From contig JACOXZ010000010.1 in NCBI GenBank assembly GCA_016182105.1, positions 1 through 62,631 of the forward strand: a stretch of 62,631 nucleotides of DNA, read 5' to 3'. This document shows, piece after piece, positions 1,773 to 46,384 of the stretch. Numbering within the stretch: the stretch's first letter is position 1; each line of letters opens with the position of its first letter. The notes beneath the pieces are model-generated. The model saw only the letters and a list, made by a program, of their open reading frames with translations, did no database searches and was not told where the DNA came from. This DNA is from Candidatus Liptonbacteria bacterium. Lineage in GTDB: Bacteria > Patescibacteriota > Minisyncoccia > UBA6257 > 2-01-FULL-56-20. The translations under genes and the position numbers were made by a program.

Positions 1773-1863
1773 AGCGGAAAGGGTGGGATTCGAACCCACG
1801 GTACCATTTCTGGTACACAGTCTTTCCAGGACTGCCGTTTAAACCACTCACGCACCTTTCCGC
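1773..1863 (-). tRNA. tRNA-Ser(GGA)
   Basis: Minus-strand GCGGAAAGGTGCGTGAGTGGTTTAAACGGCAGTCCTGGAAAGACTGTGTACCAGAAATGGTACCGTGGGTTCGAATCCCACCCTTTCCGC. It has a 7-bp acceptor stem, anticodon loop CT-GGA-AA, a long variable arm and a GGTTCGAATCC T-loop. CCA is not encoded. Confidence 0.85.
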
Positions 1864-8565: not shown

Positions 8566-8710
8566 CCCCGTCACCAGATCGAGCCCTGCAACGCCTAAAC
8601 GCTTTCCCTATTTAATCGATTCCTCGCTGAAAATAGTCTATTTTATTGAAAAACTCTATATTTCCTTAGGCGTTGTGGAAAGCGAAGGGCTCGGCTCGGT
8701 GCGGGGTCAA
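8561..8710. repeat. 150-bp inverted-repeat module A (CCCCG...CGGGG termini, TCAA flanks) abutting the groES -35
   Basis: GTCAA-CCCCGTCACC...GGTGCGGGG-TCAA, with inner complementary pairs CGAGCCC/GGGCTCG, ACGCCTAA/TTAGGCGT and CGCTTTCC/GGAAAGCG. Confidence 0.7.
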
Positions 8711-9635
8711 GAGCCCGCCTTATTAATTTCTTCGTAGATATTCAAAACCGCTTTTACGGCATCCCCGGCCGAAATATTGTTCTGCTTGTAGAGCACGTCT
8801 GTTACGTCCCCCACTGCCCAGATGCCGGGCGCGGAGGTTTTCTGTGTTTTGTGGTCCACCACGATTTCGCCGAACTTATTTAGCTCCGCCATTCCCGCGA
8901 GAAAGTCCGTGTTTGGAATAGAGCCGATCTCAACGAAAACGCCTTGGAGATCGAGTGTTTTCTCTTCTCCCGTCTTACGATCTTTATACTTCAGGCCCGT
9001 CACGAACTTATCGCCCACAATTTTTTTCGTCTCGACCATCATCATAATGGTAACCTTGCCGTCCTTCTTCTTGATTGTTTCCTGTGTAATAGGATCGCCG
9101 CGGAGTACGTCTGTATACTCCATAAGATAAATCTTCGAGGCATACGGCAGGAGATCGAGAACGGCCTCAAGACCAGCATTCCCGCCACCCACGACTGCAA
9201 CCACCTTGTCCTTAAAAATCGGCGCGTCGCACGTCGAACAATAAGCGACTCCCCGGCCGTCTCGAGTTCTTTCTCGCCCGGGATGCCGAGCTTGCGCCGA
9301 CGGCTGCCGGTCGTAATTAAAAGATATTTCGTTTCAAAAGTTTTCCCGATTTGAGTTTTCACTTTGAAACCGCTCTGGAACTTTTCGACCGCCGAGACGA
9401 TGTCGCCCTCAATAATTTCAATACCTTCCTGTGCTCGGAGGTGATCCTCAAGCATTTTCGCGAAATCAAAACCGGAGACGGATTTCGTCCCAATCCAGTT
9501 TTGGATATCGGCGGAAACCAGGGACTGTCCGCCCCACTCTTCGGTTATGAGCAATGTTTTTATTTTCTTTCTGGCCCCGTAGACTCCCGCCGCTACTCCA
9601 CCCGGACCGCCTCCTATGATAATAAGGTCGTACAT
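8707..9635 (-). pseudogene. trxB: thioredoxin-disulfide reductase (TrxB) interrupted by a 1-nt frameshift near 9253-9263
   Basis: The N-terminal ORF (MYDLIIIGGGPGGVAAGVY...GIPGEKELE) and the C-terminal frame (GRGVAYCSTCDAPIFKDKVVAVVGGGNAGLEA...) are contiguous only after a -1 shift just upstream of the CSTC redox motif. Confidence 0.8.
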
Positions 9636-42979: not shown

Positions 42980-43979
42980 ATAAATTCATATTTCTCTTAA
43001 ACCAATCCACCGTCAACTCAAGCCCGTTTCGCAAACTCGTTTTCGGCGCCCAATTTAATTTTTTCCTTACAAGTTTTGTATCCGCAACCCAACAACTGGT
43101 ATCAAAAGAACGGGATATTTTTTTATCCCAGACAGGCTTAATATCCACGCCGATAATATTTTTTATTATGGAGAAAATTTCCGCGAGATTTGTCTGTTTG
43201 CCAGTGCCAATATTGAAAATTGCTCCAGTAGAAGGATGAGCGGCGGCAAGAAGAAAGGCGCTCACCACATCGTCGATAAACACGAAATCTCTGACAACAG
43301 AAGGCGTTGAGAGATGCGGCCTTCTTTTTTTTATAAGAGAAACTATGAGGTTCGGCACTAAACGGCCGAGTGGTTCATAAAAACCGTAAGCGGAAAATGG
43401 CCTCAGGGTTACTATCGGCACCTTTCGATTTAAAGCGAGATATCGGCCGTAAAGCGTCGCCCAGGCCTTACTCGCTCCGTATGCGGTATTAGGGTCAAGC
43501 ATGTCGGCTTCTCGCATCGGCTTTTTTTTCGTTCCGTACTCCGACGAGGTTCCGGTATTGATAAAGACGTCGAATCCTTCCCCTAAACAAGCTTGCATTA
43601 AATTGAAAGTGCAAATAATATTCGTATCTATTATCTCCTGTTCGTCGTACTGTTCTTGTGGATAAGCTCCGTGCGTTGCCAGATGAAAAATTGTTTTTGG
43701 TTTTATTTTTTTTATAAACCGATTCGTCGCTAGTGGATCCCTCAAGTCGATAATGTACGTTGATACGACCCTCAAAAGATCGTCGATCCTCCAGGTACGG
43801 GCGTTTTTCCGCAGGATGACATAAACCTTTTTCGGTTGCGCTTCGCGCACAAGCCGCCGCAAAAGATTCGAACCCACAAAACCACTCGCGCCGGTGATTA
43901 AAACCGGGGTGGAAAACTTTAATGACTTGGCTTCGAAACCCATTCGTTGCATTTTAATGCCGCGCGAAAGCGAGGTCAA
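42969..43979 (-). CDS. NAD-dependent epimerase/dehydratase
   Basis: PVLITGASGFVGSNLLRRL...YGASK. The track start is TTG at 43979; internal ATGs at 43952 and 43943 are alternatives. Confidence 0.8.
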   Translation of the reverse strand: MTSLSRGIKMQRMGFEAKSLKFSTPVLITGASGFVGSNLLRRLVREAQPKKVYVILRKNARTWRIDDLLRVVSTYIIDLRDPLATNRFIKKIKPKTIFHLATHGAYPQEQYDEQEIIDTNIICTFNLMQACLGEGFDVFINTGTSSEYGTKKKPMREADMLDPNTAYGASKAWATLYGRYLALNRKVPIVTLRPFSAYGFYEPLGRLVPNLIVSLIKKRRPHLSTPSVVRDFVFIDDVVSAFLLAAAHPSTGAIFNIGTGKQTNLAEIFSIIKNIIGVDIKPVWDKKISRSFDTSCWVADTKLVRKKLNWAPKTSLRNGLELTVDWFKRNMNLYEA

Positions 43980-44006
43980 TGCGCCGCTAACGCGCGCGAA
44001 GCTTTA

Positions 44007-44278
44007 GAACCCATCTCAAAAATCCCTTCGGCCGCGATATAGGCAAATCTTTCGCGGCGCAAGAAGCAAGGACGAAGGTGTATCCTATGATACTCCGAGT
44101 CCGAAGCGACGTGGTGCCGCGAAAGATTGGCCATATCCCCAGGGGGTTGCGGAGATTTTCTTCTCCCACTACGTTGCGGCTTCGTCGGAGTGGCACAAGC
44201 CACACATTCCTCGCCGCGCCTTGCGTAGAGAAGAAAATCTCTCGCAACGCGGCTAGAAGGGATTTTTGAGATGGGTTC
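44007..44278. mobile_element. E1: 272-bp structured (MITE-like) element bounded by terminal inverted repeats
   Basis: Perfect 22-bp terminal inverted repeats GAACCCATCTCAAAAATCCCTT / AAGGGATTTTTGAGATGGGTTC. Internal 14+5 bp helix GTTGC-g-GAGATTTTCTTCTC / GAGAAGAAAATCTC-tc-GCAAC. Homologous to E2 in reverse orientation. Confidence 0.75.
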
Positions 44279-45215
44279 GAATAAAAGTTTTCAATCTTTT
44301 ATAGATAATCCATACGCCCCAGACGACCGGATAAATACCGTATTTCTTCGCGAAATAAATATCCATAATCTTTCTGTATTTTCTGCGCTTCCACGGAGTT
44401 TTGTTGATGTAGTAAACATATTCCGGCTGATAGGGAAGCGCTGAGAGAAAATACCACGGTTTTCCGCCGCCCGCGAAGTGGACAACGAGCGGATCGGGTT
44501 CGTTGTAGGGATATGCCCCTATGGGTATCGCGGCGGCTATGAGATTGTATTTTATGCCAAGCTCTCTGTAGTCGCCCGCAAACACAAGGTTAAGAGCGTC
44601 TTGCTCGTGATATCGCAACTTGTCCGGATACTCATAGATCAACCTGTGAAGTTTTTCTTCTATGCCGCGCTTTCTCCAAAGCTCCAAATCAACAAGAAGC
44701 ATTCCGACACTGAAATACGCGGACTCTTGCGACGCAATGGGCCAATTGATGTCTTTGCGCAGCTTTTTCAAATGCCCCTGTCTTTCTTCTTGCTGACAAT
44801 CCGCGATTGCTCCTATTGTTTTCCTGCCCAGGTCCACGTTAAATAGTTCGGAAATATCCCCTCGAATCACCACGTCAACTTCAAGATTGATTACCCTGCG
44901 ACATGTAGGGGGAAGAAAACGCCCCAAATAAACGCGGTGAAAGGCCTCTACTGGAGCGTGAAATCCCTTAGACAAATCACCAAGCGGCAGTCCTTGGTAA
45001 AGCTTTTTATCAGGAAGAACATAGTTTATCGTAAATCCATATTTCTTCTCCAGAGTCTCCAATCGCTCTTTATTTTTTGCTGATATTCCAAAATCTACGA
45101 CGTAAAGGCTTATCGGGTAATCCCCTTTTTTGTTTTCGAAAAGAGAACACAAGGCAACCCCAAGGAGCATGGCGTAATTATCATTCGTGGCAAAAACAAC
45201 AGATACTTTTTCCAT
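44253..45215 (-). CDS. glycosyltransferase family 8
   Basis: VSVVFATNDNYAMLLGVALCSLFENK...NLEVDVVIRGD. Start taken at MEKVS. The last 8 codons (RTHLKNPF*) lie in the E1 terminal repeat. Confidence 0.85.
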   Translation of the reverse strand: MEKVSVVFATNDNYAMLLGVALCSLFENKKGDYPISLYVVDFGISAKNKERLETLEKKYGFTINYVLPDKKLYQGLPLGDLSKGFHAPVEAFHRVYLGRFLPPTCRRVINLEVDVVIRGDISELFNVDLGRKTIGAIADCQQEERQGHLKKLRKDINWPIASQESAYFSVGMLLVDLELWRKRGIEEKLHRLIYEYPDKLRYHEQDALNLVFAGDYRELGIKYNLIAAAIPIGAYPYNEPDPLVVHFAGGGKPWYFLSALPYQPEYVYYINKTPWKRRKYRKIMDIYFAKKYGIYPVVWGVWIIYKRLKTFIRTHLKNPF

Positions 45216-45237
45216 TTGCTTAAAAATTATAATAGTC

Positions 45238-46098
45238 CTACACCTTATACCAGACAAACAAACGGAGAAGTGCCACTAGATTCCAAAATATAAGTTTAAT
45301 TCTGTCCCACATCTTTAAAGATTTTAAGCGCAATATAAAGATCATATTCGGGAAGTAAAGCGGTGAAAAAAACAACACAAACCTGACTTTGATATTGGAT
45401 AATACGCGTTTAATTCGCATAGACACACGTGGATTGGGATCAAGAACAAAAATTTTGGTGCGCTTATAAAAAAGAATTTCGTCGACGAGGGTAAAATGTC
45501 CCCTGACCAAACAGCGAAAAAGGAAGTCATACTCAAGAAATGGCTTGTCAATAAATTTACAATCAACAATTTTCTCGCGCCTCCAAACTCCATACGTCAT
45601 GTTGCCCTTTCCCCCAAGAATTGTAAGCAGAATAAATTCCTTGAGGCGTCCGTACAGATCCTTCTTAAACGTGAAAAATAATTTCGGATCTTCTTTTTGT
45701 GTCCTGCCTAAATCGTCGAAATGCATGAGTTTAGATATGGCAGCAATCGCTTCCTTGTCCGCATCCAAGGCGGCTATACATCTTTCCACGAAAGTCGGCG
45801 CCCGCTTATCATCGTCCGAAGCCCATATAAAATACTCACCTCTGGCATTTTTTTTGAGATATTCGAAGTTTCTGGCGTGGCCTATATTCGATCTCTGCCG
45901 TATATATTTTATACGTCGGTCCTTTTTCGCGTATTCCTCGCAGATCCGCGGAGTGTCGTCGGTAGAGGCGTTATCGGATATAACCAGCTCAAAATTTCTA
46001 TACGTCTGCGCAAGCAGCGAATCCAATGCCTCGCGCAAATAAGATTGCCCGTTATGCGTAGCTAAGCCGATGCTTACCAATTTTTCTTTAGAACCCAT
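45238..46098 (-). CDS. glycosyltransferase family 2
   Basis: MGSKEKLVSIGLATHNGQSYLREALDSLLAQTYRNFELVISDNASTDDT. The start ATG at 46098 and the GGAGG RBS lie inside the E2 terminal repeat. The track ORF extension to 46242 is read-through into E2. Confidence 0.85.
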   Translation of the reverse strand: MGSKEKLVSIGLATHNGQSYLREALDSLLAQTYRNFELVISDNASTDDTPRICEEYAKKDRRIKYIRQRSNIGHARNFEYLKKNARGEYFIWASDDDKRAPTFVERCIAALDADKEAIAAISKLMHFDDLGRTQKEDPKLFFTFKKDLYGRLKEFILLTILGGKGNMTYGVWRREKIVDCKFIDKPFLEYDFLFRCLVRGHFTLVDEILFYKRTKIFVLDPNPRVSMRIKRVLSNIKVRFVLFFSPLYFPNMIFILRLKSLKMWDRIKLIFWNLVALLRLFVWYKV

Positions 46099-46366
46099 CT
46101 TAATAATACCTCCAGCCCGCGTTGCTGGCGATTTTCTCGTATCCGCAAGGCTTGTCGAGTGAGCTGTGCTTGATGCACTGCGATCGAGGCGTAACGCAGC
46201 GGGACGGGAAAATCGCCGCAACCCCAAGGGGGATATGGCCAATTTCCGCAGTACCGGCGTCGCTTCCTCCTCGGAGTACCACAGGAGGGTACACTTTCGT
46301 CGTCGTTCCTTGGTCTTGCAGAAATTGGCTCATATCGCGAGCGGAGATATTATTAAGATGGGTTCT
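46091..46366. mobile_element. E2: 276-bp structured (MITE-like) element bounded by terminal inverted repeats, inverted relative to E1
   Basis: Terminal repeats GAACCCATCTTAATAATACCTCC / GGAGATATTATTAAGATGGGTTC (1 mismatch). Internal helix GTTGC-t-GGCGATTTTC / GAAAATCGCC-GCAAC. The core GGGGATATGGCCAAT is the reverse complement of the E1 ATTGGCCATATCCCC. Confidence 0.75.
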
Positions 46367-46384
46367 GCCTTGGTCCATAAAAAG

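Follow-up and report, generated by a model that had tools for sequence, protein, structure and literature searches.

Two elements beside a glycosyltransferase gene pair in a Candidatus Liptonbacteria contig are probably independent insertions of a structured miniature inverted-repeat transposable element

Results

Two homologous elements lie at the ends of adjacent GT2 and GT8 genes

We analyzed a 62,631-nt stretch of DNA from a Candidatus Liptonbacteria bacterium (contig JACOXZ010000010.1; hereafter the window), in which two short homologous elements, E1 and E2, lie on either side of a pair of glycosyltransferase genes. The genes nearby all sit on the minus strand and form a large sugar-nucleotide and glycan cluster, whose order on that strand is NTP-transferase, dehydratase, RmlD, CmcI-type methyltransferase, E2, GT2, GT8, E1, epimerase, split transketolase and FkbM methyltransferase. 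The GT8 glycosyltransferase coding sequence (44253-45215, minus strand, 320 aa) matches Pfam PF01501 at 2.3e-40. In its present form the GT2 coding sequence (45238-46098, minus strand, gene call P0001) encodes 286 aa beginning MGSKEKLVSIG and matches PF00535 at 6.1e-30.

E1 occupies 44007-44278 (272 bp) and E2 46091-46365 (275 bp). These limits agree with those of an initial annotation made from the sequence alone, save that E2 now ends at 46365 and not at 46366. A profile of the element family (nhmmer) scores E1 at 201.5 on the plus strand versus 109.5 on the minus strand, and E2 at 194.5 on the minus strand versus 113.6 on the plus strand. In terms of the family "sense" strand, E1 is thus antisense to the surrounding minus-strand operon and E2 runs in the operon sense. 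Each element is closed by terminal inverted repeats, at 44007-44029 (GAACCCATCTCAAAAATCCCTTC) and 44256-44278 in E1 and, in E2, at 46091-46113 on the GT2 side and 46343-46365 on the side of the CmcI-type methyltransferase gene. With adjoining flank included, the repeats pair over 26 nt in E1 (44004-44029/44256-44281, 96% complementary) and 24 nt in E2 (46090-46113/46343-46366, 96%). A TA dinucleotide borders each element on one side (44005-44006 for E1, 46089-46090 for E2). The opposite flanks read GA on the plus strand (TC on the minus strand; 44279-44280) and TG on the plus strand (CA on the minus strand; 46366-46367), as decayed copies of a TA duplication.

When E1 (plus strand) is aligned with E2 (minus strand), the match runs end to end, and 71% of the aligned positions (193 of 271) are identical. 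The initial annotation had recognized two homologous terminal-repeat elements in inverted orientation with a near-identical core, and both observations are real: the common blocks are ATTGGCCATATCCCC (15/15, the longest identical run being 15 nt) and GGGGTTGCGG. Their reading frames are offset by +1 and -1 indels, and internal open reading frames (ORFs) are open in several frames with no conserved protein. With at most one mismatch allowed, the window contains six occurrences of the terminal 11-mer AGAACCCATCT, where 0.89 would be expected, and element ends account for four of them; by nhmmer, E1 and E2 are the only family members in the 62.6 kb. The elements have a GC content of 54%, compared with 42.7% for the GT8-GT2 segment between them (44279-46090) and 46.5% for the window. 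Low GC is usual in glycosyltransferase genes.

Each element fills a site that is empty in relatives

Six related Patescibacteria contigs (L127, L128 and L135-L138) have CmcI, GT2 and GT8 side by side, with order and position unchanged, and nhmmer finds no match to the element family in these six. At the window loci, precise empty sites would read ATGGACCAAGGTAAAGAAAAATTGG and CTTTTATTAAAGCTTCGC. At the E1 locus the filled site reads CTTTTAT-TC-E1-TA-AAGCTTCGCGC and the empty site of L138 reads CTTTTAT-TA-AAAAGTTTCGCGC, which places the insertion at a TTAA within the last GT8 codons, with a gain of 2 nt. E2 lies after GT2 codon 4: on the minus strand the filled site reads ATGGACCAAGG-CA-E2-TA-AAGAAAAATTGG and the empty site of L127 reads ATGGACCAAGGGAGGGAAAAATTGG, so that the filled site equals the empty one plus 275 plus 2 nt. 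Empty E2 sites are present in all six contigs. The GT2 homologues P0002-P0005 begin MDQGREKLVSIG, not with the start found in the window. Homologues of the window's GT2 are 64-83% identical to it, and those at 64-67% (P0008 and P0009) are named Patescibacteria or Paceibacterota. Since each element cuts into terminal codons at a TA and adds 2 nt to its site, and since the relatives are element-free, the gene pair predates the elements, which came in by separate events. At only 71% identity, E1 and E2 are also not recent copies of each other.

These comparisons bear on the proposal of the initial annotation that E1 and E2 form one composite cassette or invertible unit with the GT8-GT2 pair. Inverted repeats that bracket a segment in a surface-glycan cluster do resemble the inverted ends of a single 2.4-kb unit, either a composite transposon or a segment flipped by a recombinase encoded elsewhere, and the argument for such a unit is its geometry of inverted homologous elements around two genes. 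This is at odds with a gene pair that is in place without the elements in six related contigs, with a separate empty site for each element inside a gene end, and with two copies that diverge by 29% and share no identical run longer than 15 nt. The expectation that both orientations of 44279-46090 would be found was not borne out: L002, L003 and L139, three independent assemblies from two other sequencing runs, show junctions and orientation exactly as in the window, with the proviso that assemblies display the majority state only and a rare inversion would need reads to show. As the initial annotation had stated, no recombinase is visible in the window: the 30 ORFs scanned (10 + 20) include neither a recombinase nor a transposase, and a tblastn search with the insertion sequence (IS) transposase described below was likewise negative, though a recombinase could be encoded outside the window. 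Three of the four same-contig pairs known in the family are inverted (window, L034 and L095; that of L113 is direct), which is no different from chance, and family members are mostly single, beside unrelated genes. We consider a 2.4-kb unit very unlikely; what stands of the proposal is the mobile-DNA-like nature of the elements.

Contig L002 ends inside E2.

The elements belong to a large family inserted at TA

We searched metagenome contigs with a pattern made of the termini only, GAACCCATCT-N(238-268)-AGATGGGTTC, that is, two 10-nt ends. More than 120 loci matched, with a sharp spacing peak at 271 nt. Of the 120 loci fetched, 114 contain a full-length homologue of about 271 bp according to an iterated nhmmer profile, with a clear best strand each time. 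The further copies that the initial annotation had suggested looking for thus exist in number. The family borders are Y-TA/GAACCC...GGGTTC/TA-R, the slashes marking the element ends. Among 105 unique copies, the left flank has T in 87 and A in 86 and the right flank T in 91 and A in 76 (about 72-87% per flank position), with TA on both sides in 47. Position -3 is a pyrimidine in 91 copies and position +3 a purine in 86; farther out the flanks are random, and no conserved promoter or terminator was found outside the borders of these copies. The elements take random orientations with respect to the ORFs beside them (22/19/18/17 over four classes). The neighbors are unrelated to one another: 146 proteins match 132 Pfam families without enrichment, glycosyltransferases included.

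At least two groups of hosts carry the family. One consists of groundwater and soil Patescibacteria. The other comes from soil, has a GC content of about 54%, and includes a urocanase 91-94% identical to proteins of Verrucomicrobia, Chthoniobacterales and Ca. Udaeobacter. The GC content of the elements is roughly 50-60% (0.39-0.65 overall) across hosts of 34-64% GC.

Searches of other collections gave few matches. In GTDB representative genomes, the core pattern GGCCATATCCCC-N-GGGGTTGC returned three matches, all by chance in unrelated sequence; evidently the window species lies outside this collection or the core is limited to one subfamily. The core and termini patterns gave no match in viral contigs, or one chance match within a gene, and plasmids searched by BLAST with E1 and with a soil-type member gave none. 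A literature search with the terminal 10-mers retrieved primers only, and no paper was found linking miniature inverted-repeat transposable elements (MITEs) with Patescibacteria. Judged by Rfam, the plasmid collection and the literature searched, the family has apparently not been described before.

Several loci depart from the usual form. Inverted pairs occur in L034 (1820-3049, 685 bp apart around a 141-codon ORF) and in L095 (4065-4815, 206 bp apart), and a direct pair occurs in L113 (10667-11771, 511 bp apart), where the second copy measures 317 nt and has an internal insertion. TA-flanked GAACCCATCT ends enclose an interior not recognised by the family profile at L031:3146-3406, L045:473-754, L092:7976-8238 and L124:1067-1354, and L073:8618-8783 is a short derivative of 166 nt; these look like sister MITE families on the same transposase ends. 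L091 and L111 have a common left flank and differ on the right, and L111 and L098 have a common right flank and differ on the left. The shared flanks indicate a multi-copy repeat, and their mixture reflects either assembly chimeras across the repeat or recombination between copies. In soil-type members (e.g., L098:1839-2114), each of the three inward frames of the Verrucomicrobia-type repeat TA/GAACCCATCTCATAAATAGGG meets a stop codon in fewer than 20 nt or at 20 nt, and flanking ORFs often end 3, 15 or 17 nt into the element.

The ends are shared with insertion sequences of the IS5 family

Solo ends turned up in L132 and L133 when viral contigs were scanned with the 19-nt end; in both, the end bounds an IS whose sequence is 99.9-100% identical to that of copies carried by Leptospira weilii plasmids. 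The full IS on one such plasmid (L134) is 865 bp long and reads TA/GAACCCATCTCAAAAA...TTTTTGAGATGGGTTC/TA. It carries two overlapping ORFs (DUF4096 and DDE_Tnp_1; NCBIfam transpos_IS5_3, NF033580) with an A-run slip site, and its end matches the end of the elements at 16 of 16 nt, these being the first 16 nt of the E1 left repeat. In a Verrucomicrobia metagenome-assembled genome (L140), an 864-bp IS has the end GAACCCATCTCATAAATAG, identical over 19 nt to that of the soil subfamily, and a second IS-type end, in L141, is GAAGCCATCTCATAAAT. The transposases of L140 and L141 are examples of homologues, 55-68% identical, that are found across many phyla.

Elements of the IS427 group, within the IS5 family, measure 832-865 bp, have inverted repeats of 13-21 bp and direct repeats of 2 bp, and carry two ORFs linked through a programmed frameshift (PMC3281130, Table 2). 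Our family resembles this group in its end sequence (19/19 in L140, 16/16 in L134), its TA flanks and its 2-bp duplication. The length of 864-865 bp and the two overlapping ORFs joined by a frameshift belong to the partner IS only (L132/L134 and L140), whereas the elements measure 271-275 bp, encode no transposase and have only the ends of about 16-20 bp in common with it, their interior being unrelated and conserved separately.

We conclude, with a probability of just under 0.9, that E1 and E2 each arose from a separate insertion of a non-autonomous MITE with ends of the IS427 type, and that they delimit neither a composite cassette nor an invertible segment. At 272 and 275 bp (the family mode being 271) they contain no transposase gene; they have terminal inverted repeats, a target-site duplication and empty sites, and their family occupies many dispersed, unrelated loci with ends common to an autonomous IS. 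We infer that they are mobilized in trans. A DDE transposase from a full-length IS elsewhere would bind the 16-20 bp ends (GAACCCATCTCA[A/T]AAAT...) and move the ~271-bp element into TA, preferably Y-TA-R, duplicating the TA; one copy would have landed after GT2 codon 4 and the other in the last GT8 codons.

The same evidence leaves little room for the idea that each element is an inverton, an invertible promoter switch flipping between its own repeats, with E1 and E2 as its two states. Inverted repeats of about 24 bp, a position just upstream of minus-strand genes, opposite interiors and a weak sigma-70-like match in E2 facing GT2 would all suit such a switch. Yet E1 and E2 differ by 29% throughout, beyond any effect of orientation, the element is absent from orthologous sites, and each element has a single orientation in the independent assemblies. 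A family that spans Patescibacteria and Verrucomicrobia, beside unrelated neighbors and with the ends of an IS, is not what a promoter switch would look like either. Of all the explanations weighed here, we find this one the hardest to credit.

The family maintains an elaborate palindromic fold

As RNA, E1 and E2 fold at -160.1 and -139.7 kcal/mol (z -14.9 and -9.6 versus shuffles), and as DNA at z -12.5 and -11.7; the opposite strands fold about equally well. The layout is Y-shaped with a four-way junction: a terminal stem of about 30 bp, two hairpin arms of about 101 nt and a small CCC/GGG hairpin at the junction. In E1, on the plus strand, arm P2 covers 44038-44139 (a hairpin of about 102 nt) and arm P3 44148-44250 (about 103 nt), both limits being approximate. 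Between the arms, the junction mini-hairpin (CCC-loop-GGG, 44140-44147) is conserved in sequence and has no covariation.

We measured covariation in an alignment of 37 members of the window's subfamily. Compensatory double changes affect 58 of the 88 pairs predicted by RNAalifold, with up to six pair types per position; helix 2, in arm P2, has 19 of 22 pairs compensated and helix 5, in arm P3, 11 of 17. Alignment cells are paired in 94.9% of cases versus 81.1% in shuffled alignments, and 443 cells carry double changes versus 127 when shuffled. In a control in which partners were slid by 1-3 columns, about 40% of cells paired and about 60 carried double changes. The compensated helices that the initial annotation had picked out by comparing E1 with E2 all proved genuine and family-wide (columns 162/256; helix 4, 80-83/93-96; helix 8, 199-202/211-214), and the covariation it had expected in further homologues is present. 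Of 116 members, 73 have the 30 + 101 + 8 + 101 layout as their minimum free energy (MFE) structure, and they span subfamilies of low sequence similarity. Another 27 of the 116, the soil-type L098 among them, fold as a single rod because their two halves are complementary. The palindromic architecture is thus maintained in the family.

Long-range pairing between the arms (AAGGNGC...GCCTTG) was considered and rejected: variants from CAAGG to CGCGA are uncompensated, and the likeness of the two motifs reflects halves that are inverted homologues of each other.

A conserved fold of this kind could itself be the point, with E1 and E2 acting as a functional structured nucleic acid (an RNA processed out of read-through transcripts, or a single-stranded DNA (ssDNA) or cruciform substrate of a recombinase) for which the transposon-like ends are only a vehicle. 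The extent of compensation and the variety of pair types speak for this, as do an architecture kept in subfamilies of little common sequence, the conserved unpaired motifs (AAGGAGC..GACGA, GAC, CGTT, GCCTTG and CCC/GGG) and an element GC content that stays in its narrow range whatever that of the host. A role in transcripts, however, sits poorly with the random orientation to transcription, which in the window leaves one element sense and the other antisense, and with strands that fold about equally (mean MFE -145.4 versus -142.4 kcal/mol). The ratio of G-U to A-C is 154:61 on the RNAalifold structure, which is biased by the prediction, and falls to 61:43 on a strand-neutral structure predicted without G-U, while the reverse strand has an excess of its own (101:69); the strand preference of the fold is weak. 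Rfam 15 holds no match to the elements at gathering score or at E <=10, nor to nine other members. The borders, too, are exact and TA-flanked with no promoter or terminator conserved outside, and halves that are inverted homologues are as expected of double-stranded DNA symmetry. We judge this explanation improbable next to MITE insertion.

Both genes are altered at one end by the insertions

The insertions rewrote the start of GT2 and the end of GT8. The ATG of GT2 (46096-46098) lies inside the E2 terminal repeat, which carries, reading outward, GGAGG, 10 nt and ATG; this in-frame ATG with GGAGG 10 nt upstream would serve as the new start of GT2. A 92-codon ORF runs through the whole of E2 (46100-46378, minus strand), opening at the original GT2 start (MDQG) and ending with a TAA 1 nt before the new ATG (TAAGATG). 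It is a by-product of the insertion and not a gene, as seen from the compensating +1/-1 indels between E1 and E2, the several open frames and a start that is the old GT2 ATG. Translational coupling or reinitiation from this frame could keep GT2 expressed. At the other end, the E1 right repeat also codes for the last 8 codons of the present GT8 frame, whose stop is at 44253-44255, so that the C-terminal tail of GT8 now comes from the repeat. The original 3' end was displaced to 43976-44004 (minus strand; codons ..K-A-S-R-A-L-A-A-H-stop), severed by E1. When E1 and one dinucleotide are removed, the GT8 tail reads ...KRLKTFIKASRALAAH (...FIKASRALAAH and stop), comparable with ...KKLKAFIKKFRA (...FIKKFRA and stop) in L138. 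GT8 has lost about 11 original codons and gained 8. Both genes would stay intact after insertion, and transcripts of the operon would carry two very stable hairpins, one per sense.

We examined the ATG of the repeat as a general donor of start codons and rejected it: outward ORFs of at least 100 codons number 24 in the ATG frame, 24 in the next and 8 in the one closed by the TAR stop. The new GT2 start at this locus is luck, not design.

The surrounding cluster varies among relatives. A NUDIX gene lies between the GT8 and epimerase genes at L128:3610-4236, and tblastn finds none anywhere in the window (compare 43952-44253). The block of epimerase, split transketolase and FkbM methyltransferase is absent from L135-L137. 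This modular make-up of the glycan cluster among close relatives does not depend on the MITEs. Elsewhere in the window, a thioredoxin-reductase-like gene (Pyr_redox_2; 8707-9635, minus strand) is broken by a frameshift into two overlapping ORFs, 9042-9635 covering profile positions 1-126 and 8707-9204 positions 145-281; it is either a pseudogene or the product of a sequencing or assembly error. The sole Rfam match in the window is an 87-nt tRNA gene with a long variable arm (1775-1861, minus strand).

Discussion

Our reading of E1 and E2 as separate MITE insertions has points that weigh against it. For both window copies, one of the two flanking TAs has mutated. A tblastn search of the window and of about 0.7 Mb of fetched loci, with the IS transposase as query, detected no transposase of the IS5/IS427 type. 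The partner IS has so far been seen outside Patescibacteria, with none in the window's own lineage, and the closest partner to the end of the window's subfamily is that of Leptospira, where the match extends over only 16 nt. Ordinary MITEs, moreover, need their ends only, and the deep conservation of the internal fold is unexplained by a MITE model alone. The fold may join the two ends, form in ssDNA during transposition or act as a hairpin in transcripts. That the four-way junction is itself required, whether for mobilization (ssDNA or a cruciform pairing the ends for an IS427-type transposase) or in an RNA role, is a tentative suggestion to which we give well below even odds.

Small mobile repeats of other bacteria offer partial parallels. 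ERIC/IRU, Correia (NEMIS) and RUP elements are likewise small and non-coding, with terminal inverted repeats, and sit at TA in either orientation in or beside genes. They can fold in transcripts, and compensatory hairpin evolution has been reported for ERIC. They are, however, simple hairpins of 100-160 bp found in Proteobacteria or Firmicutes, whereas the present family measures about 271 bp, has a four-way-junction layout and occurs in Patescibacteria and Verrucomicrobia; we know of no sequence relationship between them. Rickettsia palindromic elements are mobile palindromic repeats that reside inside coding genes without destroying them and are translated in-frame. E1 and E2 similarly spare GT8 and GT2, but truncate or replace terminal codons only, and to our knowledge have no sequence similarity to the Rickettsia elements.

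If E1 and E2 are MITE insertions, the locus is neither a phase-variation switch for glycans nor a mobile glycosyltransferase cassette, and its annotation needs correcting, since the start codon of GT2 and the stop codon of GT8 are transposon-end sequence. Such repeats probably break or confuse metagenome assemblies, in which we observed contig ends and chimeric flanks. More broadly, an abundant family is common to ultra-small groundwater Patescibacteria and to soil Verrucomicrobia resembling Ca. Udaeobacter, which indicates that transposons move into streamlined genomes. Of real interest is the elaborate fold that a MITE has here kept through so many compensatory changes. Should the fold prove to be required, these elements would represent a class of "structured MITEs" in which selection acts on shape and not on sequence, and which has spread between Patescibacteria and Verrucomicrobia.

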